64,000 nucleotides of DNA, taken from positions 65,277 through 129,276 of the forward strand of contig JANBVJ010000001.1 of the NCBI GenBank assembly GCA_024239055.1, read 5' to 3'. Position 1 is the first letter of the stretch, and each line of letters opens with the position of its first letter. Below the pieces are notes generated by a model. That model did no database searches. It was not told the origin of the DNA and worked only from the letters and a program-made list of their open reading frames with translations. A program made the position numbers and the translations under genes. This stretch comes from Patescibacteria group bacterium (GTDB lineage Bacteria; Patescibacteriota; Minisyncoccia; Minisyncoccales; UBA10102). Of this stretch, positions 7,174-50,772 are shown in pieces.

Positions 7174-7210
7174 GTGAAAATCGCCAAGCAGGCGGTTTTT
7201 TTGATACAAA
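7174..7210 (+). promoter_or_regulatory. copy of recurrent promoter-like motif (AAAATCGCCA-N18-TACAAA with T-tract and TGn)
   Basis: TCGCCA 7181-7186, T7 tract, TGaTACAAA ending at 7210. The spacer can also fold as a weak CGCC/GGCG hairpin plus T-run. Confidence 0.4.
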
Positions 7211-7304
7211 AGTATTAGATTTCTTGAAATTTGTAAGATTTTAATCTATAGTTGATTTGACACTGTTTTTCGTTGTTCTTTTTTTATTCCCATAGGAGGG
7301 GATT

Positions 7305-7979
7305 ATGAATTCACGTTTGTGGATCGTCCTCTCCGGAGTGACGATTATAGTACCGTTTGTCGTAGTTCCCTTTGCGCTCTACTTCGTGAAGGATGGGCTG
7401 CCTATCTTGAATGGGTTCTACGGATATCTCACTATTGCAATTATTGGAGTTGTTACAAACGCTACTTTTATCATTCCAACTCCTACGATGATGCCCGTGG
7501 TTGTAGAGATTGCAGATCGCAATTCTCTTTTCTTGATTGCAGGCACATATGCTTTCTTCGCCGCATTTGGTGAGAGTACTGGTTATTTTGCCGGCGATTT
7601 TATCAATAAGATTTCCGCGATACGGGATTCCAGGATACATCAGTTCCTTGAGGAGAAGATGAAGGGTGGAAAGAAGACTGGAGTCATTCTCTTTATTCTC
7701 GCTGTCTTTCCGGTTTCTCCGTTCGATATCGGGGGAGCTATTGCAGGAAATGCCGGATATCCTTGGCGATGGTTCTGGGTAGTCACATTTATTGGCAGAT
7801 GGCTGAAGTATTGGTACCTCATTCCATTCTGGGAGATTGCTGAGAGATGGATATCCAAAATTCCATGGGTTGGAAACATTGCAGGACTGCTCATGGTCGT
7901 CATCTTTCTGATTGCTATTCTGGTAGCTAACCGCATTATGAACGGCGGGAGAAAGAAAATCGTAGAGGCAGGGTCATAG
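7305..7979 (+). CDS. polytopic membrane protein, unknown function
   Basis: 224 aa with 5-6 hydrophobic spans. AGGAGGGG SD lies 6 nt upstream. Confidence 0.55.
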   Translation: MNSRLWIVLSGVTIIVPFVVVPFALYFVKDGLPILNGFYGYLTIAIIGVVTNATFIIPTPTMMPVVVEIADRNSLFLIAGTYAFFAAFGESTGYFAGDFINKISAIRDSRIHQFLEEKMKGGKKTGVILFILAVFPVSPFDIGGAIAGNAGYPWRWFWVVTFIGRWLKYWYLIPFWEIAERWISKIPWVGNIAGLLMVVIFLIAILVANRIMNGGRKKIVEAGS

Positions 7980-7993
7980 ATTCTGCCTTTTTT
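7966..7993 (+). terminator. intrinsic terminator
   Basis: GGCAG (7967-7971) pairs with CTGCC (7983-7987), followed by TTTTTT. Confidence 0.6.
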
Positions 7994-8031
7994 CTTGCTT
8001 TTGTTTTAGTTTGTGTTCACAATGCAATCAT

Positions 8032-9096
8032 ATGTCATTTTCCGTAGGTATTGTGGGTCTGCCAAATGTAGGGAAGTCCACCCTGTTTGCAGCTCTCACC
8101 AGAAAACAAGTAGATATTGCAAATTACCCTTTCTGCACCATTGAAAAGAATGTAGGGATTGTGCGTGTTCCAGACGAGCGGCTTGAGAAGTTGACTGAGC
8201 TGTTTCATTCAGAAAAAACAATCCCAACTGTTATTGAGTTTGTAGATATTGCCGGTTTAGTCAGAGGGGCGAATAAGGGAGAAGGATTGGGTAATCAGTT
8301 TCTTGCTGAGATAAGAGAAGTGAAGGCAATCCTCCAGGTAGTGAGATGTTTTGAGGATTCAGATATTGCCCATGTGGAGGAGACTATTGATCCTCTTCGT
8401 GATATTGAGATTATTGAAACAGAACTTCTCTTAAAAGATTTGGATACCGTAAAGAAGAGAATCTTTAAGGCTGAAAAAGAGATTAGGTCTGAAGATAAAA
8501 AAGCAAAAGCGCAGTATGAGATACTCTTGCAGTTGCAGTCAGCTTTGAGCAACGGTACAACAGCATTTAAGTTTATGGAGCAGAATGAGGGGAGTGAGAA
8601 GGTTATCTTAGACCTTCAGCTTCTTTCCTCCATACCCGTTTTATATATATTAAACTGTGAGGGAGATAAGGCTCCTAAAGAAGTTGAGGAAAAGATAAAG
8701 AGCATGGGTAGTTTGTTTGTTGCACTGAACGTAAAAGATGAGTTTGAATATGCCGGATTTACCCTAGAGGAGATGGAAGAACTTGGAGCTAAAGAACGAA
8801 GACTTCCTTTATTAATTAAAAAGGCCTATGAAATGCTTAATCTTATAACTTTCCTTACAACAGGGTCTGATGAAACCAGAGCCTGGACTATAGAAAAGGG
8901 TGACTTAGCTCCGGAAGCCGCAGGTGTTATTCATACAGATTTTAAAGACAAGTTTATTAAGGCTGTCGTTATTCAGTGGGATGAGCTTGTTAAGGCTGGA
9001 GGATTGGCAGAAGCCATGGCTCAGGGATTAATACGTACAGAGGGTAAAGATTATGTAGTCAAAGACGGAGATGTTATTGAGATAAAGCACGGTTGA
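8032..9096 (+). CDS. ychF: ribosome-binding ATPase YchF (Obg-like)
   Basis: VGIVGLPNVGKSTLFAALT P-loop, a TGS-like C-terminus and the typical ~355 aa length. ATG 8032 is preferred to the upstream TTG. Confidence 0.9.
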   Translation: MSFSVGIVGLPNVGKSTLFAALTRKQVDIANYPFCTIEKNVGIVRVPDERLEKLTELFHSEKTIPTVIEFVDIAGLVRGANKGEGLGNQFLAEIREVKAILQVVRCFEDSDIAHVEETIDPLRDIEIIETELLLKDLDTVKKRIFKAEKEIRSEDKKAKAQYEILLQLQSALSNGTTAFKFMEQNEGSEKVILDLQLLSSIPVLYILNCEGDKAPKEVEEKIKSMGSLFVALNVKDEFEYAGFTLEEMEELGAKERRLPLLIKKAYEMLNLITFLTTGSDETRAWTIEKGDLAPEAAGVIHTDFKDKFIKAVVIQWDELVKAGGLAEAMAQGLIRTEGKDYVVKDGDVIEIKHG

Positions 9097-9168
9097 TAAA
9101 ATCGATTTACTGTGGTAAGTTCATTTTATCGAACAGTTCGTTAAAACAGCAGCCGAAAGGCCTGATAA

Positions 9169-9666
9169 ATGTTAACTCTACTAGATCGAGAGAGTGTAGA
9201 AGAAGAAATAAGAGAATTAAAGAACATCCCAATGGCTTTCGTGCTAGGGAGTATCTTTCTTAAGTTTGCCAACATGGATGAGGTTTATGCGAGGGATAGA
9301 TTTCATTCTAATGTATCTGCGCCAGGATCTTTTCTTTCTATTTCGCTCTCATGGAGATCTGATTTAGATTACAACAAAGCAGAAGCAAAGCTTATCCTCT
9401 GGAGAGGACATATTGATAAAGATAAGGGAGGGCTTAATCCTTTTTCTTCTGAATTTGTTACGCTTGTTGCCGGTGCAGCTGATGGTGGTATATGGAGAGC
9501 AGATAAGGGCCAAGAGAGAAAATTTCGTATCTTAGTATCAGTCTCAGGTTTTAATTTTCCTGAAACTGATGGAAGATGGCTCATGAATGTGTTTCTACCT
9601 TATTTCAGTTCTATGGCAACAGAGCTCCACCTTGATGTTTCAGAGTATGCATCATTCTGGGAGTAA
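9169..9666 (+). CDS. hypothetical protein
   Basis: 165-aa ORF with no recognisable motif. Confidence 0.4.
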   Translation: MLTLLDRESVEEEIRELKNIPMAFVLGSIFLKFANMDEVYARDRFHSNVSAPGSFLSISLSWRSDLDYNKAEAKLILWRGHIDKDKGGLNPFSSEFVTLVAGAADGGIWRADKGQERKFRILVSVSGFNFPETDGRWLMNVFLPYFSSMATELHLDVSEYASFWE

Positions 9667-9715
9667 TCATTAAGAGTGATTTTCTTCAAGAAAGTCTCGT
9701 TTTTAACGGGACTTT

Positions 9716-10846
9716 TTAATATATAAAGGTATCTACAATCCGCCCATCCTTATCTAAGAGCTTAAGGGTGTCGTGACGATCCCTAGTGAAATCTCTTTCC
9801 ATATAAATATGCCACTCGTTTTTGGTAAAGTCGCTGTCGTTTTTATGCAGGTTATAGCAGGCGCTGTAATTAAAACGGTCTTGAATATATGAAAGGCATT
9901 CAGAATCTGTTGCGACAGCTGGAATATTTGCATGATTAGGTATAGTGCAGGATGAGAAGCTAATGTCTTTTAAGATAAAGTCTTGGCAAGGAATTCGCAA
10001 ATATCTTAGGTCCCGTTCAGTAGGTTTATCAGGACATGAGGATGAGATAGATAAGGGGAATGTGTAGTACTGTTTTAAATATCCCATGCAGATATTTGGA
10101 CGAAAGCTTATGTTTCTTCCAAAGGGGCTTTTTTCAGCTGTCAGATAGACAGCATCTCCTCTGCGCAGATTAATGTTGTTTGTGCCAGTAAAGTTGATTG
10201 CTTGGGGTATTTTTTCAATACCAAGAGGAATTGTAAATCCTCCTAATTCTCCCTCTATTCTCCATCCTGTTATATTTATCTTTTCATCTGATGTGAGATT
10301 TGGACGTAATGTAATAAGAAGTTTTCTGGTTGCACTTTCTTGACGTACGCTTCTGATATCTACCTTCCCATAATATTCAGATGTGTTTATGGTAAATGTG
10401 TAGGAGGCGGGAGTATAGTCTACTTCTCCTTTATATTTTGACCTTACTTTAAAGGTGTACTCATTTGGACCTAATGGTAGTTTTATAGTACGTTTTGCAG
10501 AAGAGGTTGGTTTCCAGTATTTGTCTATTCCAGCAATATATGTTTCATAAGTTATTCTTACATTATCTTCTGGGATGATACTGCCTGAAAACTCAAAGAT
10601 TACGGTGTTAGTATTATTTCCATCTTCGGGTTCCTTTGTTATTTCAGTATCTAATATAAAGCTTACTGTGGATGTTACGGTTGAGCTGGAGCCCGATGGT
10701 GTCTGTACTTCAGGCGTCAGAACTGATCTATCTTGGAGCGTATTAAGAGAGGGCAGACCAAAATCAACACCTTCAAAGATATTTCCTCCTATGCTAAATC
10801 CCGCAATAGCAAGGATTATGAGAAGCGGAATAAGAATGATTGGCAT
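9716..10846 (-). CDS. N-terminally anchored secreted protein with lamin-tail-domain-like region
   Basis: TM helix MPIILIPLLIILAIAGFSIG. The region KINITGWRIEGELGGFTIPLG...LRRGDAVYL resembles an LTD fold pattern. The C-terminal half is Cys-rich. Confidence 0.5.
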   Translation of the reverse strand: MPIILIPLLIILAIAGFSIGGNIFEGVDFGLPSLNTLQDRSVLTPEVQTPSGSSSTVTSTVSFILDTEITKEPEDGNNTNTVIFEFSGSIIPEDNVRITYETYIAGIDKYWKPTSSAKRTIKLPLGPNEYTFKVRSKYKGEVDYTPASYTFTINTSEYYGKVDIRSVRQESATRKLLITLRPNLTSDEKINITGWRIEGELGGFTIPLGIEKIPQAINFTGTNNINLRRGDAVYLTAEKSPFGRNISFRPNICMGYLKQYYTFPLSISSSCPDKPTERDLRYLRIPCQDFILKDISFSSCTIPNHANIPAVATDSECLSYIQDRFNYSACYNLHKNDSDFTKNEWHIYMERDFTRDRHDTLKLLDKDGRIVDTFIY

Positions 10847-10884
10847 TACTGTATTATACTACAATTTGAGTTCAAGTGGGACTC

Positions 10885-10893
10885 TGGTATAAT
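10885..10893 (+). promoter_or_regulatory. extended -10 promoter TGgTATAAT, leaderless geometry
   Basis: TATAAT 10888-10893, 6 nt before the ATG at 10900. Confidence 0.5.
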
Positions 10894-10899
10894 CCTTTT

Positions 10900-11643
10900 A
10901 TGAAGATTACTGCGATAAAGACCCATAAGATTACGGTTAAAGATACGGATTTGTTTTTGGTATTAGATAAGTATCTTCCTAAACTCAAGGAGGGTTCTGT
11001 TGTTGCCATTACTTCAAAGATAATAGCCATATGCGAGGGTAGGGTGGCTGATCCCAAAGATGTAGATAAAGATGAGTTAATAAAGCGGGAAGCTGAGGCT
11101 TACTTACCACGATCTAAAAGCAAATATAATTTATTGGTGACTCTAAAGAATAATATGATTGTTCCTTCTGCTGGAATTGATGAATCAAATGCAGATGGTC
11201 TCTATGTACTATGGCCTGAGGATTCGCAAAAGACAGCAAATAAGGTAAGAGAATATTTAGAAAAGAAGTTTAAAATTAAAAATGTGGGAGTTGTTATTAC
11301 AGATAGCCGAACATCCCCATTGCGATGGGGGGTGACTGGTATTTCATTGGCACACTCTGGGTTTTCTGCTCTGAATAATTATATTGGAAAGAAAGATATC
11401 TTTAAAAGGGTATTAAATATGACTATGACAAATGTAGCTGATGGTTTGGCGGGAGCTGCTGTGCTTTTAATGGGGGAGGGAGCAGAACAAACACCCTTGG
11501 CTATTATTGAGGATGTTAAGTTTGTGAAGTTTCAAGGAAGAAATCCTACAACAAAAGAATTAAAGCAGCTGTGTATTAAGATTGAAGATGACATTTATGG
11601 ACCTATGTTAAAGGGAGTGAAGTGGCGAAAGGGTGGTTCTTGA
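10900..11643 (+). CDS. F420-0:gamma-glutamyl ligase (CofE)-family protein
   Basis: VAITSKIIAICEGR and SAGIDESNA motifs are typical of PF01996. Confidence 0.65.
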   Translation: MKITAIKTHKITVKDTDLFLVLDKYLPKLKEGSVVAITSKIIAICEGRVADPKDVDKDELIKREAEAYLPRSKSKYNLLVTLKNNMIVPSAGIDESNADGLYVLWPEDSQKTANKVREYLEKKFKIKNVGVVITDSRTSPLRWGVTGISLAHSGFSALNNYIGKKDIFKRVLNMTMTNVADGLAGAAVLLMGEGAEQTPLAIIEDVKFVKFQGRNPTTKELKQLCIKIEDDIYGPMLKGVKWRKGGS

Positions 11644-11724
11644 ACTGTGGATAACCATATCTCTTGACAGGGTTTGTTGGGTATGATAACGTTTAAATAC
11701 TTGTATAATCGTTTAAGTATTAAA

Positions 11725-12036
11725 ATGCTTACAACAAAAGAAATTGGAAAATTTAAAAAGAAGTTACAAGGAGGTGAGGATCATCTTGCTTTTATCTTTG
11801 AGGCACTCTCAAACCCTGCGCGTTTAAAGATATTTCGTCTGCTTTCAAAGCAGAAAGATATCTGCGTAACAGATGTTGCAAGGATACTTGGTGTGTCTGT
11901 ACCAGCGGCTTCCTATCAGTTTCGTATTTTAGAGATGGTGGGATTAGTAGAGAAAGAGAGAATGGGAAAGATGATTTGTTACAAACTTAAAAAAGAAAAT
12001 CCTATAGTTCGAAAGATAATAAGGATTGTTGGGTAG
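11725..12036 (+). CDS. ArsR/SmtB family transcriptional regulator
   Basis: ALSNPARLKIFRLL...ICVTDVARILGVSVPAASYQFRILEMVGLV is a winged HTH. Confidence 0.75.
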   Translation: MLTTKEIGKFKKKLQGGEDHLAFIFEALSNPARLKIFRLLSKQKDICVTDVARILGVSVPAASYQFRILEMVGLVEKERMGKMICYKLKKENPIVRKIIRIVG

Positions 12037-12068
12037 GTCGAAGATAAAAAATAAATGAAGAAAATGAA

Positions 12069-12308
12069 ATGGCAAAAGTAATACTATACACTACACCTAC
12101 ATGTGTGTACTGTAAGGCAGCAAAAGAGTTTTTTGAAGAGAACAATGTGGAGTATGAGGAGAAGGATGTCTCAAAAGATGAGGCAGATCTTCAGGAGATG
12201 GTAAAGAAGTCAGGTGGTATGGCGGTTCCCGTCATAGACATTGATGGGGAAATAGTTGTTGGTTTCAATAAGGATCAGGTTGCAGATCTATTAGGAGTAG
12301 GGAAATAA
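12069..12308 (+). CDS. glutaredoxin-like protein (NrdH/YruB type)
   Basis: 79 aa with CVYC redox motif in KVILYTTPTCVYCKAAKEFF. Confidence 0.8.
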   Translation: MAKVILYTTPTCVYCKAAKEFFEENNVEYEEKDVSKDEADLQEMVKKSGGMAVPVIDIDGEIVVGFNKDQVADLLGVGK

Positions 12309-12318
12309 CAGCTGATAT

Positions 12319-13338
12319 ATGCGGCTGTTTTTGCCCATTCTTGTTATAGGAGTTGTTGGACTAGGTATTATTTTTATTCCTAGGCTTTTTCTCTCAGATG
12401 ACTTTAATCTGCCGCAGGGAGAGGCTGTGAGAGAAACTATTATGGTTAAAGATACAGGAACTAAAAAAGAGGTAGAACGTGAGATATTAGTTACTGATGG
12501 AGTAAGGCACTCAGTTCCCTTAGACGAGGTTGTTGGAGGGGGACCGCCAAAAGACGGTATTCCTCCAATAGACAATCCTGAGTTTATTATATCTTCTGAG
12601 GTTGATGATTGGCTGCAGGATGATGAACCTGGTCTTTCAATATCTCAAGGGGCTACGAATCGTTTCTATCCTTATCAGATTTTGGTATGGCATGAGATTG
12701 TAAACGATACGATTGATGGTAAACGCATATTGGTAACCTATTGTCCATTGTGTTTCTCTGGCATTGTTTTTGACCCTGTGGTTCAGGGTGAGCGCGTTGA
12801 GTTTGGAACTTCAGGAAAGCTCTGGCAGTCTAATCTTGTTATGTATGACCGAAAGACAGACAGCCTATGGTCTCAGATTTTAGGAGAGGCTATTGTAGGT
12901 GAGATGACGGGTACTACACTACGCATTCTTTCTTCTGATCAGATGCTCTATGGGGAGTGGAAAAAGAATAATCCTACAGGTCAGGTGCTCGCACGCCCTC
13001 AAGGGGCTGGGAAGTTTTATGGAGTGAATCCTTATGGGAGCTACTACTCGGTTGCAAACTTTTCGCTTAATCTTGTAAATAAGATAGATGATAGACTTTC
13101 CAATGATACTTTTGTCTTTGGGTTAATCTTTGATAGTGTAGCTAAAGCATACAATATAGAATCGGTAAAGCAGAAGGGTGTTGTAAAAGATAAGGTAGGG
13201 GAGACCGATGTTGTATTGCGGTATGATAAGGAACTGGATGTTGTCCGTGTATTCCAGGGAGAGAAGAGAATTAATCCTATTTCCGGGTTCTGGTTTAGTT
13301 GGGTTGCAGCTCATCCAGATACCGAGGTTTATAAGTAA
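12319..13338 (+). CDS. DUF3179 domain protein, membrane-anchored
   Basis: PPKDGIPPIDNPEF, YPYQILVWHEIVND and ILVTYCPLCFSG motifs. Confidence 0.7.
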   Translation: MRLFLPILVIGVVGLGIIFIPRLFLSDDFNLPQGEAVRETIMVKDTGTKKEVEREILVTDGVRHSVPLDEVVGGGPPKDGIPPIDNPEFIISSEVDDWLQDDEPGLSISQGATNRFYPYQILVWHEIVNDTIDGKRILVTYCPLCFSGIVFDPVVQGERVEFGTSGKLWQSNLVMYDRKTDSLWSQILGEAIVGEMTGTTLRILSSDQMLYGEWKKNNPTGQVLARPQGAGKFYGVNPYGSYYSVANFSLNLVNKIDDRLSNDTFVFGLIFDSVAKAYNIESVKQKGVVKDKVGETDVVLRYDKELDVVRVFQGEKRINPISGFWFSWVAAHPDTEVYK

Positions 13339-13347
13339 CAAAATACT

Positions 13348-25646: not shown

Positions 25647-25675
25647 TTGACATTTGGCTATTTATCTGATAAATT
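25647..25675 (+). promoter_or_regulatory. promoter TTGACA-N17-TAAATT for the str operon
   Basis: TTGACA 25647-25652 and TAAATT 25670-25675, 44 nt upstream of rpsL. Confidence 0.55.
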
Positions 25676-30247: not shown

Positions 30248-30586
30248 ATGGCAGCAGCTAAAAAAAAGAAAAAAGAAGAGCAAGTATCACGGGTGAGAAT
30301 AAAGATTTCAGCCTATGACCATAAGGTCATTGATGCCTCTTCAAAGCAGATAATAGATACCTTGTTAAGGCAAGGGGTGGACGCTGTTGGACCTATTCCT
30401 CTTCCTACTGAGAAAAGGAAGTATACTGTAAACCGTTCTTCCTTTGTTCATAAGGATGCACGGGAACAGTTTGAGATGAGAACGCATAAGAGACTTATTG
30501 ATATCTTAAACCCTAACCCAAAGATTATTGATTCCCTTACAAACTTAAATCTACCTGCTGGGGTGGATATAGAATTAAAGATGTAA
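30248..30586 (+). CDS. rpsJ: 30S ribosomal protein S10 (Lys-rich N-terminal extension)
   Basis: [22 protein letters not shown]...[39 protein letters not shown]. Confidence 0.93.
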
Positions 30587-30587: not shown

Positions 30588-30608
30588 AGCCGCCTGTTGG
30601 CGGTTTTT
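30588..30608 (+). terminator. intrinsic terminator directly after rpsJ
   Basis: AGCCGCC (30588-30594), loop TGTT, GGCGGTT (30599-30605), T-run to 30608. Confidence 0.65.
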
Positions 30609-30648
30609 ATGTAGAGTGATATAGAATATATGATGTGTGACATTTCAG

Positions 30649-30685
30649 CTTAAATATCGCCAAGAATGCATTTTTTTGGTATGAT
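30649..30685 (+). promoter_or_regulatory. copy of recurrent promoter-like motif (AAATATCGCCA-N17-TATGAT) upstream of the island operon
   Basis: TCGCCA 30657-30662, T7 tract, TGgTATGAT with TATGAT 30680-30685. 96 nt upstream of the ATG at 30782. Confidence 0.45.
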
Positions 30686-35737: not shown

Positions 35738-37270
35738 TTAGAATAGGCGCGGTAAGCTTTTTGTCTCCAACAGCCATTTCTTTGCAATCTTGATATAGTC
35801 AGGGTTGAGCTCAAATCCTATATAAGATAGTCCTAGTTCTTTAGCTGCAACACATTCAGATCCTGTACCAACAAAAGGTACAAGAATAACAGCATCTTTT
35901 TTAGGCATTGCCGACTGTATAAGTTTTTTTGATAATTCAAGAGGTTTTTGAGTGGGGTGTTTCATAGTTTCATGGTCTTTATGTAGTTTGAGTTTTTTAG
36001 GTTCTAAAACTTTATTACATGTTTTACATATAAACCATCTTTCGTTTACACCAGCTCCCCCAGCAAGTGCTGGAATTTTAATAACGTCTCTTGGTAGTGC
36101 GCCAGACTCATGAGCTTTATATATGGTTTCTTTACCATTTGTACTAAATCTTCCTGGAGTCCCAACTCTAATTTTACCCGCAGCTCCATTTAGGAATCCT
36201 TCTGTGTAAGGTTCTCTAACGGCATCACGGTTAAAGGTTGGTTTATCTTTCCAGCAACAAATAATTGATTCATGACTTCTTTGCCAGAAATTTAAAGAAG
36301 CAACATTTTTGTTTGTGTAATGCCAAATTAACCATCTTTTATGAATAGGTATTTCAACTGATAAATATGCAAGAGTTTCACTAAATCCATAAATGAACAT
36401 TGTGCCATTTGGTTTCATAACTCGTATACATGCATCAATCCAGTTTTTGCACCATTCTATGTATTCAAAAAGTTCTCTTTTATCGGAATTATTTCCAAAG
36501 TCTTTACCAATATTATATGGTGGATCAACGATTATGATATCGCAACTATTCTTTGGTAGTTTTTTTAACTCTTTAAGTGCATCACATTGGATTATTTTAT
36601 TTAATGGTAGTTTAGTGTATTCTTTTATCTTTTTTTTAAAGATGATTTTTTTGGATGATAATTCCTTTTTATTTTTTATAATTCCAAAAACTATACCTTG
36701 TATAGTAAGATCTTGATCTTTATTAATAATAATTGGCTTCATCCGCTTATTAGCTGGCTGAAGGCGTATTTGTCCTTTTTCTTTATAGAATTTCTTTAGT
36801 GTTACTTCGTAATTATCAATTAAAGCAACTACATTTTGTCCATTTTCAGCCATGTCTTGTTGCTTGATTAAGATTACGTCTCCATCATTAATATTTTCAT
36901 TAACCATACTATTACCAGTTACGCGTAATGCGTAGAATTCACCAGATCTTGGTAATCTATTTTTTGGAACACCAATATACTCTTTATTCTCTATGGCTTC
37001 TATTGGTTCTCCTGCAGCTATAAGTCCGATCATAGGAATACGTACTAAACTAGATTCTTGTGTCTTTCCAGATATTTCTATGCCTCGTGTTTGATAGTCT
37101 AGTTTATTTATATATCCTTTTTCTTTTAGTTCATTAATATGTTCATGAACAGTTGATCTTGAGGATAGCTTAAAGTGTTTTCTAATATCTTCAAGAGAAG
37201 GGGAATACCCTTTTGACTTTATAAATCTTTCTATGTATTCAAGTGTTTCTTTTTGTTTTTTGGTTAGCAT
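35738..37270 (-). CDS. full-length LexA (wHTH + S24 autopeptidase) fused to a beta-class N6/N4 DNA methyltransferase
   Basis: aa 1-200 are collinear with LexA: Ala86-Gly87 in LIAAGEP, Ser121 in GNSM, Lys159 in EVTLKKF. aa ~220-510 have DPPY (249-252), HPTQKPLEL and VLVPFVGTGSECVAA. No stop between the halves. Confidence 0.85.
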   Translation of the reverse strand: MLTKKQKETLEYIERFIKSKGYSPSLEDIRKHFKLSSRSTVHEHINELKEKGYINKLDYQTRGIEISGKTQESSLVRIPMIGLIAAGEPIEAIENKEYIGVPKNRLPRSGEFYALRVTGNSMVNENINDGDVILIKQQDMAENGQNVVALIDNYEVTLKKFYKEKGQIRLQPANKRMKPIIINKDQDLTIQGIVFGIIKNKKELSSKKIIFKKKIKEYTKLPLNKIIQCDALKELKKLPKNSCDIIIVDPPYNIGKDFGNNSDKRELFEYIEWCKNWIDACIRVMKPNGTMFIYGFSETLAYLSVEIPIHKRWLIWHYTNKNVASLNFWQRSHESIICCWKDKPTFNRDAVREPYTEGFLNGAAGKIRVGTPGRFSTNGKETIYKAHESGALPRDVIKIPALAGGAGVNERWFICKTCNKVLEPKKLKLHKDHETMKHPTQKPLELSKKLIQSAMPKKDAVILVPFVGTGSECVAAKELGLSYIGFELNPDYIKIAKKWLLETKSLPRLF

Positions 37271-44151: not shown

Positions 44152-44544
44152 ATGCATTCAGATCCAATAGCTGACATGTTAAATAGAATGACTACGGCTG
44201 CCGCTGTTAAAAAGGAGACAGTTGAAGTTCCCTTTTCTAACGTAAAGTACGGGGTAGCTAAAGTTTTGGAAAGAGTAGGATTTATTAAATCTGTGCGTCT
44301 TCAAAAGCGTAAAGGGAGAAACGTTATTGAGATTCAGTTAAGATATAAGGATTCGTTTCCGATATTTACTTCTTTTAAGCGTGTGTCAAAGCCGGGACAG
44401 AGAATGTATGCTTCTACAAAGAAGATAAAAGGAATAAGAGGAGGATTTGGTATTGGTATTGTCTCAACCTCAAAAGGGTTGATGACAAATCAAGAGGCTA
44501 GAAAAGAAGGAATTGGAGGAGAATTAATATGCGAACTTTGGTAA
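44152..44544 (+). CDS. rpsH: 30S ribosomal protein S8
   Basis: DPIADMLNRMTTAAAVKKETVEVPFSNVK. Confidence 0.95.
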   Translation: MHSDPIADMLNRMTTAAAVKKETVEVPFSNVKYGVAKVLERVGFIKSVRLQKRKGRNVIEIQLRYKDSFPIFTSFKRVSKPGQRMYASTKKIKGIRGGFGIGIVSTSKGLMTNQEARKEGIGGELICELW

Positions 44545-44545
44545 T

Positions 44546-45103
44546 ATGTCACGCGTAGGAAGACAATCAATTGAAATACCTCAGGGAGTGGAGGTTAAGA
44601 TAGAAGGAAACCATGTTTCTGTAAAAGGACCAAAGGGGAGTTTGGAGCGCGATATCAGACCTGAGATTGAGGCCAAGGTTGAGGGTAATAAAGTTGAAGT
44701 AACTCCAAAGGAGGGAGCAAAGAAGCCAGAAGCCATGTGGGGTCTTACTCGCTCACTCATAGCTAATATGGTCCAGGGGGTAGCGGAAGGATATGAAAAG
44801 AAGCTTGAGATTGAGGGTGTTGGATACAGGGCAGAAGCCACAGGAGACTCTATAACTTTAAATATGGGGTTTTCTCATACAATTGTATTAAAAGCACCAG
44901 AAAATGTAGCGTTCTCTGTTGATAAGAATGTTATTACCATTTCAGGCGCCGACAAAGAAAAAGTAGGGCAGTTTGCTTCTTCTATTAAAAAAGTAAGACC
45001 AGTAGAACCCTATAAAGGGAAGGGTATTAAATATGAGGGAGAACATGTAAGAAGAAAGCTTGGAAAGAGGGCAGCGGGTGAGGGAACTGAAGGAGCCGCA
45101 TAA
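44546..45103 (+). CDS. rplF: 50S ribosomal protein L6
   Basis: [33 protein letters not shown]. Confidence 0.95.
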
Positions 45104-45107
45104 TATT

Positions 45108-45461
45108 ATGAAATTAACGAAACTAGAACAACGACAAAGAAGACATCGCCGTGTGACTGCGCGAGTGTCAGGGACTAAGGTAAAGCCACGCTTGGTTGTC
45201 TTTCGTTCAAACAAACATATGTATGCCCAACTAATAGACGACGCAAAAGGTTTGACGTTGGCTGCGGTTTCAGACGAAAGTGTGAAGGCAGAAAAAGGAA
45301 AGAAACCGTTGGAGGTATCAAAAGAAATTGGAAAGCTTATTGCTACTATTGCAACAGAAAAGAAGATAAAGTCAGTTGTCTTTGATAGAGGAGGATATAA
45401 GTATCATGGAAACGTAAAGGCGATAGCTGAGGGAGCAAGAGAAGGAGGGCTTAAAATATAA
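45108..45461 (+). CDS. rplR: 50S ribosomal protein L18
   Basis: [37 protein letters not shown] 45108 is preferred. Confidence 0.93.
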
Positions 45462-45463
45462 TT

Positions 45464-46105
45464 ATGGCAGAACAAACATCAACAACACAAAATACTCAGA
45501 GAAGGGGAGCTGGAAACCAAAGAGGTAATCATTCGCAGCGAGGCGGCTTTGGAGGTGGCAGAGGCAGAGGTGGAGACCGTAGAAGACAGGGAGGCAGAAG
45601 GAAGGAATCTAATGACGGTTTTGATTCACAACTCCTAGATCTAACTCGTGTAGCCAGAGTGGCTAAAGGAGGAAGAACATTTCGATTCCGTGCAACTATG
45701 ATTACCGGAGACGGTAAAGGAAAGGTTGGTATTGGTGTTGCAAAGAGTTTGGATGTAGCTTCCGCCATTGAAAAGGCTACAAAAAGAGCAAAGAAAGATC
45801 TTATTGAAGTTTTCATGCATAATGAAACCATTCCTCATGAAGTTCAGGCTAAGTTTGGAGCTTCAAAGGTTATACTGCGCCCACAAGCCCAGGGAAGAGG
45901 GTTGGTTGCAGGGGGAGCTGTACGTGTTATTTGTGAAAAGGCAGGTATTAAGAATATTTCAGCTAAGTTTATCTCACGATCCGGAAACAAGTTAAATAAC
46001 GCTAAAGCCACCCTAAAGGCTTTGCAGATGTTAAAGAAGCCTCTTGAAACTAAGAAGAAGGAAGAGAAAAAGATTATTGTAAAGGATACTAAAAACAAGG
46101 AATAG
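45464..46105 (+). CDS. rpsE: 30S ribosomal protein S5 (RGG-rich N-terminal and K-rich C-terminal extensions)
   Basis: RVARVAKGGRTFRFRATMITGDGKGKVGIGVAKS core, with a QRGGFGGGRGRGGDRRRQGGRRKE N-terminal extension. Confidence 0.93.
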   Translation: MAEQTSTTQNTQRRGAGNQRGNHSQRGGFGGGRGRGGDRRRQGGRRKESNDGFDSQLLDLTRVARVAKGGRTFRFRATMITGDGKGKVGIGVAKSLDVASAIEKATKRAKKDLIEVFMHNETIPHEVQAKFGASKVILRPQAQGRGLVAGGAVRVICEKAGIKNISAKFISRSGNKLNNAKATLKALQMLKKPLETKKKEEKKIIVKDTKNKE

Positions 46106-46107
46106 AT

Positions 46108-46548
46108 ATGCAGTTACACACAATAAAATCATCTCGTACAACAGCTTCCAGAAAGCGTATTGGAAGAGGAGGCAAGAGAGGTACATATTCTGGCCGCGGA
46201 ATGAAGGGACAGAAGTCCAGAGCCGGAGCGAAGTACGAACCTCTTATTAGGCAGATGGTAAAGCGGTATCCAAAGCTCAGAGGATATCGTGCTCAGACAA
46301 GATCTTATCTTCAGCAGATAGTTTCACTATCTTCTCTTGAGAAATATTTGGATGATAATGCTGTTATTACGCCAAAGCTTTTGCTTGAAAAGAATATTAT
46401 TAGTACAATGAAAGGCAGGATGCCCAAGGTAAAGATTTTGGGAACGGGTGAAGTAAAGAAAGCCTTTACTATTAAGGGGTGTGAAGTTTCAGAGTCGGCT
46501 AAGGCAAAGATAATTGCAGCGGGTGGCAGCGTTGAAGAAAACAAATGA
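46108..46548 (+). CDS. rplO: 50S ribosomal protein L15
   Basis: RKRIGRGGKRGTYSGRGMKGQKSRAG. The start is 2 nt after the rpsE stop, so no rpmD lies in between. Confidence 0.93.
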   Translation: MQLHTIKSSRTTASRKRIGRGGKRGTYSGRGMKGQKSRAGAKYEPLIRQMVKRYPKLRGYRAQTRSYLQQIVSLSSLEKYLDDNAVITPKLLLEKNIISTMKGRMPKVKILGTGEVKKAFTIKGCEVSESAKAKIIAAGGSVEENK

Positions 46549-47825
46549 ATTTAATTTTTAGATTTTTACAGATATTTAAGATTCCCGATTTGAGGAATAA
46601 ACTCATATTCGTATTTGGAATTTTTGTTATATTTCGTTTAATGGCAAACATTCCCATCCCAGTTATTGATGCGATTTCGCTACAGCAGTTTTTTGAAGGG
46701 AATCAGCTATTTGGACTCTTAAACCTATTTACCGGAGGCGCCCTAGATAACTTGTCTTTAGTCATGCTAGGACTTGGTCCTTATATTACAGCTGTTATTG
46801 TTATGCAGTTAATGACCATGATATTTCCTGCATTGGAGAGAATGTATAAAGAAGAAGGGGAGCAGGGACGCCAGAAGTTTAATCAGTATGGACGACTCTT
46901 AACTATTCCTTTTGCCTTACTTCAGGGGTATGCCTTTCTTACACTGTTAACGCGTCAGGGGGTAATTGAGCCTTTGTCACCCTTGGGATATATTATGGCT
47001 TTGGTAACTATAATGGCAGGTACCTTAATCTTAATGTGGATGGGAGAACTTATTACAGAAAAGGGGATTGGGAACGGGGTATCTCTCTTGATTTTTGCGG
47101 GTATTGTGGCTGACTTTCCAAACTCACTAAGACAGATGTTTGTTGTCTTTGACATGTCCCAGCTCATGGCTTACATATCCTTCTTTGTCATGGCTTTGGC
47201 TATTATTGCAGGGGTTGTCTTAATTACAGAAGCCAGAAGAAATATACCTATTTCATATGCAAAAAGAATCAGGGGGAACAAGATGTATGGGGGAGTATCA
47301 ACCTATCTGCCTCTGAGTGTGAATCCAGCTGGTGTTATTCCAATTATCTTTGCTTTATCTATTATGCTGTTTCCGGGAATGGTAGCCTCGTTCTTTGCTG
47401 ATGCAGGAGGAATAATCGGGGGTATTGCCCTTACCGTGCAAAGACTCTTTGAAAGCGCATGGACATACGGTATTTCCTACTTTATATTAGTAGGGCTGTT
47501 TACATATTTTTACACAGCAGTTACCTTTGATCCTAAAGCCATTGCGACAAACTTACAGAAGATGGGAGGGTTTATTCCTGGGGTCAGGCCCGGAGAATCT
47601 ACCTCTGACTTTCTCTATTTTGTATTAAACAGATTGCTTTTGGTTGGAGCTGTATTCTTGGGGACTATTGCCGTACTTCCTTCTATTGTTCAGGGAATGA
47701 CGGGTGTTACGGGATTCTCTTTCCTTATTGGCGGAACTTCACTTTTGATTATGGTGTCTGTGGTTCTAGAAACCTTAAAGCAGATACGCTCTCAACTTCA
47801 GATGAGAGAATATGAAACCTTCTAA
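46545..47825 (+). CDS. secY: preprotein translocase subunit SecY
   Basis: 426 aa with 10 TM helices. Motifs LGLGPYITAVIVMQL and GELITEKGIGNGVSLLIFAGI. Confidence 0.95.
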   Translation: MNLIFRFLQIFKIPDLRNKLIFVFGIFVIFRLMANIPIPVIDAISLQQFFEGNQLFGLLNLFTGGALDNLSLVMLGLGPYITAVIVMQLMTMIFPALERMYKEEGEQGRQKFNQYGRLLTIPFALLQGYAFLTLLTRQGVIEPLSPLGYIMALVTIMAGTLILMWMGELITEKGIGNGVSLLIFAGIVADFPNSLRQMFVVFDMSQLMAYISFFVMALAIIAGVVLITEARRNIPISYAKRIRGNKMYGGVSTYLPLSVNPAGVIPIIFALSIMLFPGMVASFFADAGGIIGGIALTVQRLFESAWTYGISYFILVGLFTYFYTAVTFDPKAIATNLQKMGGFIPGVRPGESTSDFLYFVLNRLLLVGAVFLGTIAVLPSIVQGMTGVTGFSFLIGGTSLLIMVSVVLETLKQIRSQLQMREYETF

Positions 47826-47828
47826 GAC

Positions 47829-48398
47829 ATGAAAGATACTCTTGTCTTATCAGTATTGGGAAGACCAGGAAGCGGGAAGGGCACACAGGCTGAATATTTA
47901 AAGCGTGATTTCGGTTTTGCATCATTTAGTACTGGCGCCTTGCTCCGTAAACGAGCAAAAAATAGAGATTACACAGGCAGGAGAATAGGTTCATTTATAG
48001 AGAATGGAGATATTGTTCCTTCTCCGATTACCTTTTTTATGTGGATGCCAGAGCTTGAATCTTTCAAGCAGAAAAATGTTTCTCGAATTATTATAGATGG
48101 AACTCCAAGAAAGATTCTGGAAGCTTATATTCTTGATGATGTTGTTGAGTGGTATGACTGGAAGAACATGAAGGTGCTGAACATTAAAATCTCAGAAAAG
48201 GAGGCTATAAAACGTTTAGTAAAGCGTGGAAGATCTGATGACGAGTTATCAGACATTAAAAACAGACTGCAGTGGTTTAAAAAAGATGTAGAGCCGGTAT
48301 TACGATACTATAAAAAGAAAGGCATGCTCCTAGATATTAATGGTGAGCAGTCACGAGAATATGTCTACAAAGAGATCAAGGCAAAGCTTAAACTATGA
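47829..48398 (+). CDS. adk: adenylate kinase (short form, no Zn LID)
   Basis: LGRPGSGKGTQAEYLKRDFGF and DGTPRKILEA, at the operon position between secY and map. Confidence 0.85.
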   Translation: MKDTLVLSVLGRPGSGKGTQAEYLKRDFGFASFSTGALLRKRAKNRDYTGRRIGSFIENGDIVPSPITFFMWMPELESFKQKNVSRIIIDGTPRKILEAYILDDVVEWYDWKNMKVLNIKISEKEAIKRLVKRGRSDDELSDIKNRLQWFKKDVEPVLRYYKKKGMLLDINGEQSREYVYKEIKAKLKL

Positions 48399-49141
48399 TA
48401 ACTATTAAGACTGAAGAGGAGATTCAGGTAATGAGGGAAGGAGGAAAGATGTTAGCTCACATATTAGAAGACATTGCAAAAGATATAGCACCTGGAGTAA
48501 CAACAAAACAATTAGATACCAAGGCTGAAAAACTTATTAAAGAGGCGGGAGCTAAACCCGCCTTTAAAGGTTATGAAGGTTTTCCTGGGATTGTTTGTAC
48601 AGCGGTTAATGAAGAGATGGTGCATACTGTTCCATCAGACAAACCATTAGAGGAAGGAGATATTCTTAGCTTAGACATTGGCCTTATTTATAAGGGTATG
48701 TATTTGGATATGGCAAGAACTTATCCTGTAGGCGAGATAAGTTTGGAAGCCTCACATTTGATAAAAACAACAAAGAAATCACTCAGGATTGGCATTAAGA
48801 AAGCGAGACCTGGAAATACCGTAGGGGATATTGGAAACACTATACAGCGCTTTGTAGAGGGCCAGGGGTATGGTGTAGTAAGAATCCTGTGTGGACACGG
48901 TATTGGAAAGGAGCTTCATGAAGACCCAAAGATTGCCAACTTTGGAAAGCGTGGAGATGGAGAAGAACTGAAACAAGGCATGGTTATATGTATTGAACCT
49001 ATGGTTACAGCAGGGAAGTATGATTTAAAAAAAGCAGATGATGGGCATGGATATATTACAAAAGACGGCTCTTTATCCGCACATTTTGAGGATACAGTAG
49101 CTATTACACAAGACGGGGCTGAGGTGCTAACTAAGATATAG
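48395..49141 (+). CDS. map: methionine aminopeptidase type I
   Basis: IKTEEEIQVMREGGKML, HGIGKELHEDP and EPMV metal ligand motifs. Confidence 0.93.
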   Translation: MITIKTEEEIQVMREGGKMLAHILEDIAKDIAPGVTTKQLDTKAEKLIKEAGAKPAFKGYEGFPGIVCTAVNEEMVHTVPSDKPLEEGDILSLDIGLIYKGMYLDMARTYPVGEISLEASHLIKTTKKSLRIGIKKARPGNTVGDIGNTIQRFVEGQGYGVVRILCGHGIGKELHEDPKIANFGKRGDGEELKQGMVICIEPMVTAGKYDLKKADDGHGYITKDGSLSAHFEDTVAITQDGAEVLTKI

Positions 49142-49160
49142 AGTCTAGTGATATAGTAGA

Positions 49161-49200
49161 GGTACTCAAAGTCGCCAGAGAGGTGATTTTTTGATAGAGT
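49161..49200 (+). promoter_or_regulatory. copy of recurrent promoter-like motif (GGTACTCAAAGTCGCCA-N17-TAGAGT), leaderless geometry
   Basis: TCGCCA 49172-49177, T6 tract, TGaTAGAGT with TAGAGT 49195-49200, 6 nt before the ATG at 49207. Confidence 0.45.
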
Positions 49201-49206
49201 AAGTTA

Positions 49207-49566
49207 ATGAAACTCATATATTGTGCCACACCATCTCGTTTAAAAGATAAACAGGAAAAGATTAAAGACTTTGTTGAAGAGCGGGGAAATGCGCCTTTCC
49301 ATCCTTTTCAGGCATTTGAATATGAAAGATTTGAAGGAGGAGCACCTGGTAGAAAACAGACAATGGAATTTTGCTGTAGAGCCATAGATATCTCTGATGA
49401 ATTCTGGATGTTTGGAATATCAGAGGGTACTCTTACTGAATTGTCTTATGCATTAGAAAAAAACAAAGAGATTAAGCTATTCTTAGATAATTTTGATAAA
49501 GATTGGGAAAAAGAATATATGAAACTTAAAGATAGGTTTAATGATCCATTAAAGCATATCTTATAA
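49207..49566 (+). CDS. hypothetical protein
   Basis: 119-aa ORF. The weak Rossmann-like pattern (MKLIYCATP...DEFWMFG.SEG) is not assignable to a family. Confidence 0.4.
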   Translation: MKLIYCATPSRLKDKQEKIKDFVEERGNAPFHPFQAFEYERFEGGAPGRKQTMEFCCRAIDISDEFWMFGISEGTLTELSYALEKNKEIKLFLDNFDKDWEKEYMKLKDRFNDPLKHIL

Positions 49567-49593
49567 AATTAAAGACGCATATTATATGATCGT

Positions 49594-49632
49594 GGACTCA
49601 AAGTCGCCAAATGAGCTATTTTTTGTTAAACT
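49594..49632 (+). promoter_or_regulatory. copy of recurrent promoter-like motif (GGACTCAAAGTCGCCA-N17-TAAACT)
   Basis: TCGCCA 49604-49609, T6 tract, TGtTAAACT with TAAACT 49627-49632, 8 nt before the ATG at 49641. Confidence 0.45.
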
Positions 49633-49640
49633 TAAAGCAT

Positions 49641-50270
49641 ATGAAACTATATTTAGTCAGACACGGAGAAAGTATCTCTAATGTAAAAGGTAGTATTGTT
49701 CAGCCATTAGGGAGTGAGTTATCAGAAAAAGGAAAAGAACAGGCAGAGATTCTTGCTAAGAGATTTAAAGATATTCCAGTAGATATTATTCTTTCCAGTC
49801 CACTGATAAGGGCTAAGCAGACTGCTGAAATTATTCAAGGAGTAATAGGGAAAGAGGTTGTTTATACAGACCTTCTTTCAGAGCGCAGGAATCCATCAGG
49901 ATTTATTGGTAAGGATACAGAGGATCCTGAATTTAAGAAGATAAATAAGCTGTTGAGAGATTCTACAGATCCTTCCTTCCATCATTCAGATGAAGAGAAT
50001 CTTTTTGATGTAAAAGAAAGAGCAGAGCGCTTACTTGAGTTTGTATCTAGTCGGAAAGAAGAACATATTCTTTGCGTTACTCATGGAGTATTCTTAAAAA
50101 TTGTGATTGGCTCTATGGAATTTGGAGAGCATCTTACATCAAAGACTATTTGTGCTCTGCAGGATTTCTTAAGAACGAATAATACTGGTATTACAGTTTG
50201 CGGGAAAGATGATAAAAGGGGATGGTCTATGTATACCTGGAATGACCATGCACACCTAGGAGAGCTTTAG
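49641..50270 (+). CDS. histidine phosphatase family (phosphoglycerate-mutase-like) protein
   Basis: MKLYLVRHGES catalytic RHG motif at the N-terminus, with a second His in VTHGVFL. The ORF-track start at 49611 lies in the promoter-like spacer. Confidence 0.75.
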   Translation: MKLYLVRHGESISNVKGSIVQPLGSELSEKGKEQAEILAKRFKDIPVDIILSSPLIRAKQTAEIIQGVIGKEVVYTDLLSERRNPSGFIGKDTEDPEFKKINKLLRDSTDPSFHHSDEENLFDVKERAERLLEFVSSRKEEHILCVTHGVFLKIVIGSMEFGEHLTSKTICALQDFLRTNNTGITVCGKDDKRGWSMYTWNDHAHLGEL

Positions 50271-50289
50271 TTTAATAATATATTAAGCT

Positions 50290-50328
50290 GAGTTTAGAGT
50301 TGCCAATCAAGCGATTTTTTGATAGATT
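50290..50328 (+). promoter_or_regulatory. copy of recurrent promoter-like motif (GAGTTTAGAGTTGCCA-N17-TAGATT)
   Basis: TTGCCA 50300-50305, T6 tract, TGaTAGATT with TAGATT 50323-50328. A GAGGAG SD precedes the ATG at 50347. Confidence 0.45.
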
Positions 50329-50346
50329 AATAATGAGGAGTGATAA

Positions 50347-50697
50347 ATGCATATCGTCATTGTTCTTTTTGGAGCTATTTTCATTGGGTTCATAGAAGCG
50401 AGTTGGGGTGCCCGTAAAGATACACGATTAGGAGAGTCATTCTCTATTCGTAAGTTTTTTAAAAGCCCAATTCTTTTCTTTCTTATATCTGCAATATTGT
50501 TGGTATTTGCTTATGATGCACATCCAATCTTTATTATTTTTGCTTCTCCGGCAATAGCAAGAATTCTTGTGGAGTTTCTTAAACTTATTTCAGGAAAGCC
50601 GCCAGGTAAGTTTATTAATCCACAACGTGACACAAGATGGTTGCGGATATGGATTTCAGAATTGGTAGCCCAATTAAAATCTCAACGAGTGAGGTAA
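50347..50697 (+). CDS. small membrane protein, unknown function
   Basis: 116 aa with three hydrophobic spans and a GAGGAG SD. Confidence 0.45.
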   Translation: MHIVIVLFGAIFIGFIEASWGARKDTRLGESFSIRKFFKSPILFFLISAILLVFAYDAHPIFIIFASPAIARILVEFLKLISGKPPGKFINPQRDTRWLRIWISELVAQLKSQRVR

Positions 50698-50727
50698 GGT
50701 GTCGTTACTAAAATACGGCATCTTTTT
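50698..50727 (+). terminator. intrinsic terminator
   Basis: GGTGTCGT (50698-50705) pairs with ACGGCATC (50715-50722) including G-U pairs, followed by TTTTT. Confidence 0.55.
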
Positions 50728-50739
50728 ATAAATGAAGCT

Positions 50740-50772
50740 GGACTCAAAGTCGTCAAGTAGCTAATTTTATTG
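50740..50772 (+). promoter_or_regulatory. degenerate copy of recurrent motif (GGACTCAAAGTCGTCA...)
   Basis: The 5' half is shared with the copies at 49161 and 49594. The -10 part is not conserved, and the adjacent TTGACT-N17-TATCTT takes over. Confidence 0.35.

Follow-up and report, generated by a model that had tools for sequence, protein, structure and literature searches.

The stretch of DNA analyzed here (the window) comprises 64,000 nucleotides from a Patescibacteria group bacterium (GenBank assembly GCA_024239055.1, contig JANBVJ010000001.1, positions 65,277 to 129,276 of the forward strand). The Map protein encoded in the window has its nearest named relatives in Parcubacteria lineages, and nearly all of the genes are on the + strand. 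No tRNA genes were found in the 64 kb. Rfam 15 returned no match at the gathering score over the whole window, and a search of positions 49100-50900 at an E-value threshold returned only a snoRNA match at chance level (E 0.99). The subject of this report is an intergenic repeat of which the window contains six complete or partial copies and in which a conserved box, the hexamer TCGCCA, a short stem-loop, a T tract and a -10-like hexamer follow one another between two co-oriented genes. All six were found where the first-pass annotation had placed a promoter-like motif of ∼40 nucleotides; the conserved unit proved to be longer, and in alignments A1 and A2 it spans the ∼65 nucleotides between the stop codon of one gene and the ATG of the next. 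The copies, and the zone that contains most of them, are listed below with bit scores from a hidden Markov model (HMM) of the boxed copies and with the predicted energies of the hairpins.

49142..51669, + strand: hypervariable zone between map and a glycosyltransferase (GT2) gene, in which the four boxed window copies lie.
49142..49206, + strand: module IG1, between map and open reading frame (ORF) 49207; HMM 40.5 bits, hairpin -8.8 kcal/mol.
49567..49640, + strand: module IG2, before the His_Phos_1 gene (true start 49641); HMM 47.6 bits, hairpin -1.0 kcal/mol.
50271..50346, + strand: module IG3, after the His_Phos_1 gene; HMM 36.7 bits, hairpin -4.6 kcal/mol.
50715..50798, + strand: module IG4, a truncated copy; HMM 40.3 bits (model positions 5-48), no hairpin.
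7177..7210, + strand: box-less generic member 7181, directly after an MscS-like gene (stop 7170); HMM 19.4 bits, hairpin -10.1 kcal/mol.
30657..30685, + strand: box-less generic member 30657, before island gene 30782; HMM 14.6 bits, hairpin 0 kcal/mol.

The four copies downstream of map scored 37-48 bits, while members 7181 and 30657 matched the model in its right half only. In IG1 a degenerate box (49150-49171) is followed by TCGCCA (49172-49177), the 3' arm GGTGA (49182-49186), a T6 tract (49187-49192), TGA and the -10 hexamer TAGAGT (49195-49200), with 6 nucleotides to the ATG at 49207. IG2 is composed of a box (49579-49603), the hexamer (49604-49609), a decayed 3' arm (AGCTA), T6 (49619-49624) and the -10 hexamer TAAACT (49627-49632), 8 nucleotides from the ATG. 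In IG3 a diverged box (50276-50299) precedes TTGCCA (50300-50305), T6 (50315-50320) and TAGATT (50323-50328), and an 18-nucleotide leader with GAGGAG separates the latter from the ATG at 50347. IG4 is degenerate, as had been reported for the copy at 50740: the GGACTCAAAGTCG block, the box (50728-50749) and the hexamer TCGTCA (50750-50755) are retained and the hairpin 3' arm and -10 are lost, ORF 50841 being served instead by a separate and better promoter, TTGACT(50770)-17-TATCTT(50798). A perfect match to the 14-mer ACTCAAAGTCGCCA is present at both 49164 and 49596, and a match with a single mismatch at 50742; the copy at 49161 has an insertion of one nucleotide (GGTACTC).

The -10 that had been described as part of the motif is poor at 7181. 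This member consists of the hairpin AAAATCGCC-AAGCA-GGCGGTTTT, T7 and a weak -10 hexamer (TACAAA), and it is probably mainly the terminator of the MscS-like gene, since the likely promoter of gene 7305 is TTGAAA(7224)-17-TATAGT(7252). Member 30657 (TCGCCA, N8, T7, GG, TATGAT) has no hairpin and probably acts solely as a promoter; rpsJ has its own terminator (30589-30612), which ends 45 nucleotides upstream of this member. The small ORFs of the map zone had been called orphans; two of them have family matches, His_Phos_1 (49641-50270) and a weak match to DUF7768 (E 0.0013, below the cut-off) in the 119-residue product of ORF 49207-49566 (+). Judged by eye, the latter resembles nucleoside 2-deoxyribosyltransferase-like proteins.

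The pattern TYGCCA-N9-TTTTTT occurs five times in the window against an expectation of 0.12 from 100 dinucleotide shuffles, none of which reached five. The pattern was drawn from the sites themselves and the enrichment is therefore post hoc, yet it is too large to be seriously doubted. The five good copies have hexamer starts at 7181, 30657, 49172, 49604 and 50300; all five are on the + strand and intergenic, and in each the T tract is followed by G-N-TA. No further copies were found in 20 kb more of the same genome (L054 1-10000 and L056 10469-20468), nor in the related contigs L032 and L062.

A metagenome scan for the block together with the T tract returned mostly single chance matches, plus real homologues. 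In the metagenome contigs L040, L037/L047, L033, L059 and L061 copies of this unit are densely packed, each separating one gene from the next. Contig L040 contains at least 11 copies between consecutive + strand genes over 6.8 kb (array 1188-6776), among them genes for MgsA, a DUF5667 protein, an alpha/beta hydrolase, a truncated methyltransferase, NTPase_I-T, a MazG/dUTPase-like protein and GDPD. Contig L037, the same in sequence as L047 and as contig L015 of a species-representative metagenome-assembled genome, contains ∼8 copies in 4 kb (3387-7600), and further copies are present in L033, L059 and L061. The order of the unit is stop codon, one to three boxes, hairpin, T6-7, G-N-TAnnAT, 6-8 nucleotides and ATG, without a Shine-Dalgarno sequence. 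The box is 20-24 nucleotides long with the form ATATATGA-N4-GGACTCAAAG, aligned as (TAG)TCTCACAATATATGA-(GTGK or AGCY)-GGACTCAAAG, and in A1 and A2 it is followed by TCGCCA, a 4-nucleotide loop remainder, GGCGR and T6-7. Two alleles of the box, GAGTGKGG and GAAGCYGG, are both present in L040 and each recurs in several other contigs. The one to three boxes stand in tandem ∼20 nucleotides apart in relatives, the forms with two or three units comprising box A (ATATATGAAGCYGGACTYAAG) and then box B (YRYATAAAGGRGGACTCAAAG), at the positions below.

L037, 3842-3890, 6687-6735 and 7500-7580: tandem boxes.
L059, 1063-1110: tandem boxes.
L061, 645-700 and 1357-1410: tandem boxes.

The box-less form is also present in relatives, where it precedes the genes for MgsA, the DUF5667 protein, the hydrolase and others. 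A scan of species representatives (one genome per species) with ACTCAAAGTCGYCA-N9-TTTT gave 30 single matches in unrelated taxa, approximately the number expected by chance; those in L017 and L024 are coding sequence and only L015 is real, results indicating that the boxed repeat is not widespread among species representatives. Four matches to the box in viral contigs were all chance matches in coding-like sequence.

A census of the window and relatives with a relaxed pattern yielded 24 non-redundant modules, each of them oriented like the genes on either side. The spacer between hexamer and -10 is 17 nucleotides in 23 of the 24 (the pattern allowed 16-19), and T5-7, 1-3 nucleotides and TAnnn[T/C] are present in all 24 as the pattern required. 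An ATG is located 5-8 nucleotides after the -10 in 17 of the 24 modules, for which the binomial tail is ∼2e-14 given the ATG frequency of the window. Each of these ATGs corresponds to a called gene start or, in the His_Phos_1 family, to the conserved start MKLYLVRHGE, and the interval leaves no room for a Shine-Dalgarno sequence. The promoter-like character assigned earlier to the motif is borne out by the extended -10 that stands 6-8 nucleotides before the ATG at 49207, at 49641 and in most copies of the relatives. Since 6 nucleotides separate the -10 from the ATG, standard promoter geometry predicts a start on the A of the ATG and a leaderless mRNA. Few Shine-Dalgarno-like sequences are present in the window, and several first genes (at 198, 1280, 4398, 14900, 17997, 25022 and 51689) have a TATAAT-like hexamer 6-7 nucleotides before the ATG, which suggests that they too are transcribed as leaderless mRNAs; genes within the ribosomal operons often abut as TAAT-ATG. 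A -10 placed 6-8 nucleotides before a start codon that lacks a Shine-Dalgarno sequence thus appears to be a genome-wide habit in the window.

The same geometry was found with other stems or with none, as in the GT2 promoter of L032, which has an unrelated GGGGCG...CGGCCCC stem, and in the following window features.

51587..51619, + strand: same architecture with an unrelated stem, AAATCAGCC-TAAA-GGCTGGTTT, T6, GT, TATATT.
51670..51691, + strand: right-hand unit alone, TTTTT-GA-TATACT-ATTGTA-ATG of the GT2 gene, at which homology with L033 and L032 resumes.
60089..60117, + strand: infA promoter, TTGACT-N9-T6-GG-TATTCT, with the same geometry, a canonical -35 and no hairpin.

Other promoters of the window are canonical, with TTGACA-17-TATAAT types at 25647, 28922, 37857 and 51083. 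Promoter-like sequences were also detected on the minus strand, antisense to the modules (TTGGCG-18-TATAAT at 49610..49581 and TTGGCA-18-TATATT at 50306..50277), and are absent from IG1 and from the L040_2 copy; an antisense promoter in these intergenic regions is possible. Positions 51553-51618 are 80.6% identical over 67 nucleotides to 7945-8011 of L040, a contig otherwise unrelated here. The shared sequence spans the hairpin terminator AAATCAGCC-TAAA-GGCTGGTTT with T6-GT-TATATT and may represent another intergenic repeat family.

The hexamer TCGCCA had been described as a non-canonical -35. It was found to be the 5' arm of a hairpin: TCGCC pairs with GGCGR across a 5-nucleotide loop, and the AAAG preceding it is able to pair with the first Us of the tract. 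In alignment A2, 90.8% of the cells are paired, compared with 44-58% when the partners are slid, and the 5-base-pair stem is fully paired in 14 of the 24 copies. Two independent compensatory changes from C-G to U-A were identified, at L040 5601 (TTGCT/AGCGA) and L061 690 (TCGCT/AGCGG), and most other changes in the stem are to G-U and wobble-compatible in the + strand RNA. Hairpin energies are -6 to -10.6 kcal/mol in most copies of the relatives; in the window, folding is strong for 7181 and IG1, weak to moderate for IG3 and lost in IG2, IG4 and 30657. The first-pass annotation had allowed a hairpin terminator for one or two copies and set that reading aside. The count is about right for the window, and the dismissal does not hold across the repeat family, whose ancestral form includes the hairpin. 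Constraint is tighter on the 5' arm than on the arm with which it pairs: no copy departs from T1 or G3, 23 of the 24 retain the loop base A6, and the hexamer survives loss of the 3' arm in 30657 (with its own terminator 45 nucleotides upstream), IG2 and L040 1537. Since T1, G3, C5 and A6 of TCGCCA are the positions held in common with TTGACA, the -35-like part of the earlier description stands. The simplest reading is that TCGCCA represents a compromise, GC-rich enough for the stem and -35-like enough, together with an extended -10, to bind sigma. Conservation of the upstream half, which had been considered a puzzle because extended -10 promoters do not need a -35, would be explained if this half serves as hairpin arm as well as -35-like element.

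Comparison of the map-GT2 interval among relatives located the breakpoints at which homology ends and resumes. The interval contains five small genes in the window, one (His_Phos_1) in L033 (4773-5466) and one unrelated ORF of 84 residues in L032 (10733-11108), and the Map proteins of L033 and L032 are 98% and 81% identical to that of the window. Identity between the window and L033 is 98.1% through the final base of map (49141), 74.7% over His_Phos_1 and the module downstream of it, and 86.8% from 51670. Homology with L032, for which the backbone identity is 79%, is lost after ∼49126, 15 nucleotides before the map stop codon, and regained at 51670. Position 51670 is the T tract of the GT2 promoter. 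Directly upstream of TTTTTTGATATACTATTGTAATG L033 has a full boxed module, L032 has an unrelated GC stem before the same T tract and -10, and the window has a third sequence. Similarly, the window, L059, L061 and L063 agree in the promoter half of His_Phos_1 (T6-GT-TAAAnT, 8 nucleotides, ATG) and differ in the sequence upstream of it. In L033, L061 and the window the stop codon of His_Phos_1 is followed by a box and hairpin, and in L059 by just the TAGTCT start and a degenerate box-less hairpin. The location of the breakpoints at the T tract indicates that the repeat divides there, with box and stem as the tail of the gene upstream and T tract, -10 and ATG as the head of the gene downstream. 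Homologues of His_Phos_1 were found in five different neighborhoods. The earlier suggestion that the repeat had spread along with gene cassettes agrees with the L040 and L037 arrays, the shuffled single-gene units and the different content of the map-GT2 interval among strains.

The architecture, spacing and distribution of the unit, and the comparative breakpoints, are matters of direct observation. The reading that we favor, and consider probable, is that this lineage-specific intergenic repeat is a promoter-coupled intrinsic terminator driving leaderless mRNAs. The short GC stem-loop (UCGCC-N5-GGCGR, which AAAG/UUUU pairing can lengthen) together with the tract of six or seven Us would end transcription of the upstream gene, and the same T tract would supply the T-rich spacer and the T of the extended -10 (TGnTAnnAT). 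RNA polymerase would then start 6-8 nucleotides past the -10, at or beside the A of the ATG, to produce a leaderless mRNA. TCGCCA would have the dual role of 5' arm of the stem and GC-enriched -35-like element, 17 nucleotides from the -10. The joint would represent two units that meet at the T tract, of which box and hairpin move with the upstream gene and T tract, -10 and ATG with the downstream gene. A compact terminator-promoter joint is to be expected where Shine-Dalgarno sites are few and a leaderless gene needs a 5' end of its own.

Several points weigh against this interpretation. Termination, initiation and leaderless translation are each predicted from sequence. The core stem is just 5 base pairs, and three of the six window copies are unable to fold, so that termination may be weak or absent at those copies. 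Covariation of the stem in A2 was no higher than in the shuffle control; support for the stem therefore rests on the pairing frequency, the slide control, the two compensatory changes and the folding energies, and is moderate overall, since the pairing could in part be mere sequence conservation. The conserved upstream box is left unexplained by a terminator and promoter. Moreover, IG3 is only 68.5% identical over 54 nucleotides (62% over box and hexamer) to its positional orthologue in L033, which is below the coding identity, whereas non-orthologous copies of box and hexamer are 86-93% identical between contigs that share no other nucleotide similarity. That an orthologue is less alike than non-orthologous copies indicates a consensus-maintaining process beyond simple termination and initiation. 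Judging from these comparisons, a process that keeps the box near its consensus is at work, whether through spread, through gene conversion or because binding by a partner is selected for.

In its core the motif resembles a kind of element described very recently. In promoter-coupled terminators the -10 comes right after a T tract, the DNA of the stem-loop serves as the -35, termination and start sites are ∼10 bp apart, and the elements are enriched between tandem genes, as demonstrated in A. baumannii, E. coli and B. subtilis by Cappable-seq, Term-seq and in vitro transcription (Fletcher, Forrest, ... Grainger, bioRxiv 10.64898/2026.08.19.745784, Aug 2026). Strong spacers across bacteria are likewise characterized by a T-rich tract and, after it, a G-rich extended -10 region (2025 study, PMC12641261). 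The repeat shares with promoter-coupled terminators the stem-loop over the -35, the T tract directly 5' of the -10, the short intergenic regions between tandem genes and the A tract upstream of the stem, and its predicted termination and start sites are ∼10-15 nucleotides apart. It differs in that one conserved stem (TCGCC/GGCGR) and one to three conserved boxes constitute a repeat family and not independent sites, that the stems are much shorter and that the promoters would feed leaderless mRNAs. The host also differs, being an uncultured Parcubacterium with an RpoA in which no alpha C-terminal domain (alpha-CTD) was detectable, and known here from sequence alone. The core of the motif would thus belong to the kind just described, and the fixed-stem family, the tandem boxes, the leaderless genes and the Parcubacterium host would set it apart. 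The module also resembles the extended -10 promoters of leaderless genes in Actinobacteria and Deinococcus, with TAnnnT 6-8 nucleotides before the start and no Shine-Dalgarno sequence (for example PMC4007540, PMC4633059, PMC6028130). Such promoters are not known to occur as a repeat joined to the terminator of the preceding gene.

Intergenic repeat families with transcriptional activity include the REP/BIME (repetitive extragenic palindrome/bacterial interspersed mosaic element) sequences and the Correia elements of Neisseria. The intergenic repeats of halovirus HF2 are reported to carry promoters (PMC8707807). The present repeat is like these families in being short, near consensus and located between genes, with promoter and/or terminator activity that is predicted here; it is unlike them in being strictly parallel to the genes and in fixed register to stop and start codon. 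The terminal inverted repeats and target duplications of Correia elements and miniature inverted-repeat transposable elements were absent from the alignments.

A first alternative concerns the box, which could be the operator of a DNA-binding regulator that co-controls small scavenging and house-cleaning enzymes, the core being the chassis. The proposal could hold on top of the terminator-promoter explanation, the box ending at -36, and we regard it as unlikely but worth serious consideration. The conservation of the box at 86-93% between otherwise dissimilar contigs, the phased tandem boxes and the small palindrome GACT-N3-AGTC are consistent with an operator, as is the finding that RNAalifold predicted no structure for the box and found the terminator stem alone. 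Boxed copies flank genes for His_Phos_1, NTPase_I-T, the MazG/dUTPase-like protein, GDPD, the alpha/beta hydrolase and DUF2268, and by our own reading of translations for a HAM1-like protein, which share a loose nucleotide and phosphoester theme. These flanking genes are nevertheless heterogeneous and include orphan ORFs and a glycosyltransferase, and no candidate regulator is linked to the box. The box adjoins the upstream stop codon and moves with the upstream gene, not with the downstream gene that would be regulated, its number and distance from the stop vary, and the orthologous pair IG3 and L033 is poorly conserved. The two window sites outside the map zone are also without a box. The earlier proposal of a small regulon joining a membrane-protein gene and the island between rpsJ (30248-30586) and rplC (37957) to the orphan ORFs was not supported: since 7181 and 30657 are box-less, contain the generic half only, and the same half precedes unrelated housekeeping genes (such as mgsA) in relatives, these two sites offer no evidence for such a link. 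The island contains DUF4357, DndB-like and D12 methylase genes, to which ORF 35738-37270 (-) is convergent; the 510-residue product of this ORF combines LexA DNA-binding, Peptidase_S24 and N6_N4 DNA methylase domains.

The RpoA protein (61888-62679, +, 263 residues) matches RNA_pol_L and RNA_pol_A_bac, the same two families listed in L056, and no family match to an alpha-CTD was obtained even at E up to 1. A full-text literature search on the rpoA C-terminal domain in Patescibacteria found no paper. An UP-element explanation of the A/T-rich box is therefore doubtful, which leaves more room for an operator.

A second alternative is that the repeat is a substrate for recombination, forming the junctions of a gene-cassette system either as an attC-like site of a recombinase or as shared homology by which relatives gain, lose and swap single leaderless genes. 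The arrays of single genes each parted by the repeat in L040 and L037 point in this direction, as do the strain with 98.1% backbone identity that differs exactly from the map stop codon onward with a cassette 74.7% identical, the five neighborhoods of His_Phos_1 homologues, the partial and tandem partial copies (L040 3431 and 5551; L037 3842, 6687 and 7529) and the truncated copies at array ends (L040 6725 and window 50740). A 316-residue tyrosine recombinase with Phage_integrase and SAM-like N-terminal domains is encoded ∼2 kb past the L040 array (8896-9846, -), but by its Pfam domains it looks like an ordinary XerC/D-type enzyme, and its gene is convergent with the array and not divergent. 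A tblastn search with the L040 recombinase found none in the 64-kb window; no integrase family appears in the precomputed Pfam lists of L054 and L056, which were not searched with the L040 recombinase. The left breakpoint of L033 is at the map stop codon, where no repeat exists, and the differing truncation points from copy to copy argue against site-specific cutting. No RYYYAAC/GTTRRRY core sites and no imperfect palindrome spanning the element were found. We consider recombination at the repeat a very unlikely explanation.

The comparison with integron cassette arrays leads to a similar result. As in those arrays, single and mostly small co-oriented genes are parted by a similar repeat of 60-90 nucleotides and the content varies between close strains; unlike them, the arrays here have neither attC core sites nor a long imperfect palindrome, no IntI adjoins the array, and each gene has a promoter of its own and no common Pc. 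An integron was rejected on inspection of alignments A1-A3, which revealed no attC features and a 5-9-bp terminator stem as the sole conserved pairing, and by the lack of an integrase in the window (tblastn).

That the copies have a single function, as plain sigma-70 promoters with an incidental stem or as plain terminators with an incidental -10, is highly improbable. Individual copies do fit one or the other: 30657, IG2 and L040 1537 are stemless and yet retain TCGCCA-17-TAnnnT, and 7181 combines a strong stem with a poor -10 and is followed by a better promoter. A promoter alone leaves the conservation of GGCGR in the spacer and the two compensatory changes unexplained, and a terminator alone does not account for the fixed distance from -10 to ATG in 17 of the 24, the invariant T1 and G3 or the kept A6.

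Scarcely credible is an RNA-level function of the box as a 3' untranslated region element or short leader ORF (ATG-AAG-CTG-GAC-TCA-AG...), which together with the hairpin would serve in attenuation or be bound by an RNA-binding protein; although the box lies directly after the stop codon and before a terminator-type hairpin with a U tail, and an in-frame ATG is present in most boxes with a stop after 7 codons in the long forms, most of the variation is at the second position of codons, IG1 and IG3 lack the ATG, peptide length ranges from 7 to >20 residues, and neither a consensus structure involving the box nor an Rfam match was found. A leader peptide was rejected for this substitution pattern and the missing ATGs, and the alternative P1 hairpin (GACU-CAA-AGUC) is a weak candidate antiterminator (-2.4 kcal/mol) that is broken in about half of its variants.

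We know of almost nothing reported on transcription signals in the Candidate Phyla Radiation, and of no member in pure culture with mapped transcript ends. A promoter-coupled terminator feeding leaderless mRNAs would provide a concrete and testable rule for a lineage of the Parcubacteria, in which genes would often be separate leaderless units joined by a compact terminator-promoter module, and the rule would improve the calling of gene starts and operons in such genomes. It would also extend the concept of promoter-coupled terminators to a distant phylum and to leaderless mRNAs. If RpoA truly lacks the alpha-CTD, neither UP elements nor class I activation could operate in this bacterium by their usual mechanism. 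The conserved box of 20-24 nucleotides marks rapidly changing gene neighborhoods, such as the zone downstream of map. A bolder proposal, which we think quite unlikely, is that box and hairpin together are a dedicated cis element of an undescribed Parcubacteria cassette system, with the tandem boxes recognized by a specific protein, be it a global regulator or a recombination factor. Were this correct, single leaderless genes, many of them for nucleotide or phosphoester scavenging and each bounded by a standard joint of terminator and promoter, could be shuffled, exchanged among lineages and co-regulated without operons, Shine-Dalgarno sequences or an alpha-CTD.

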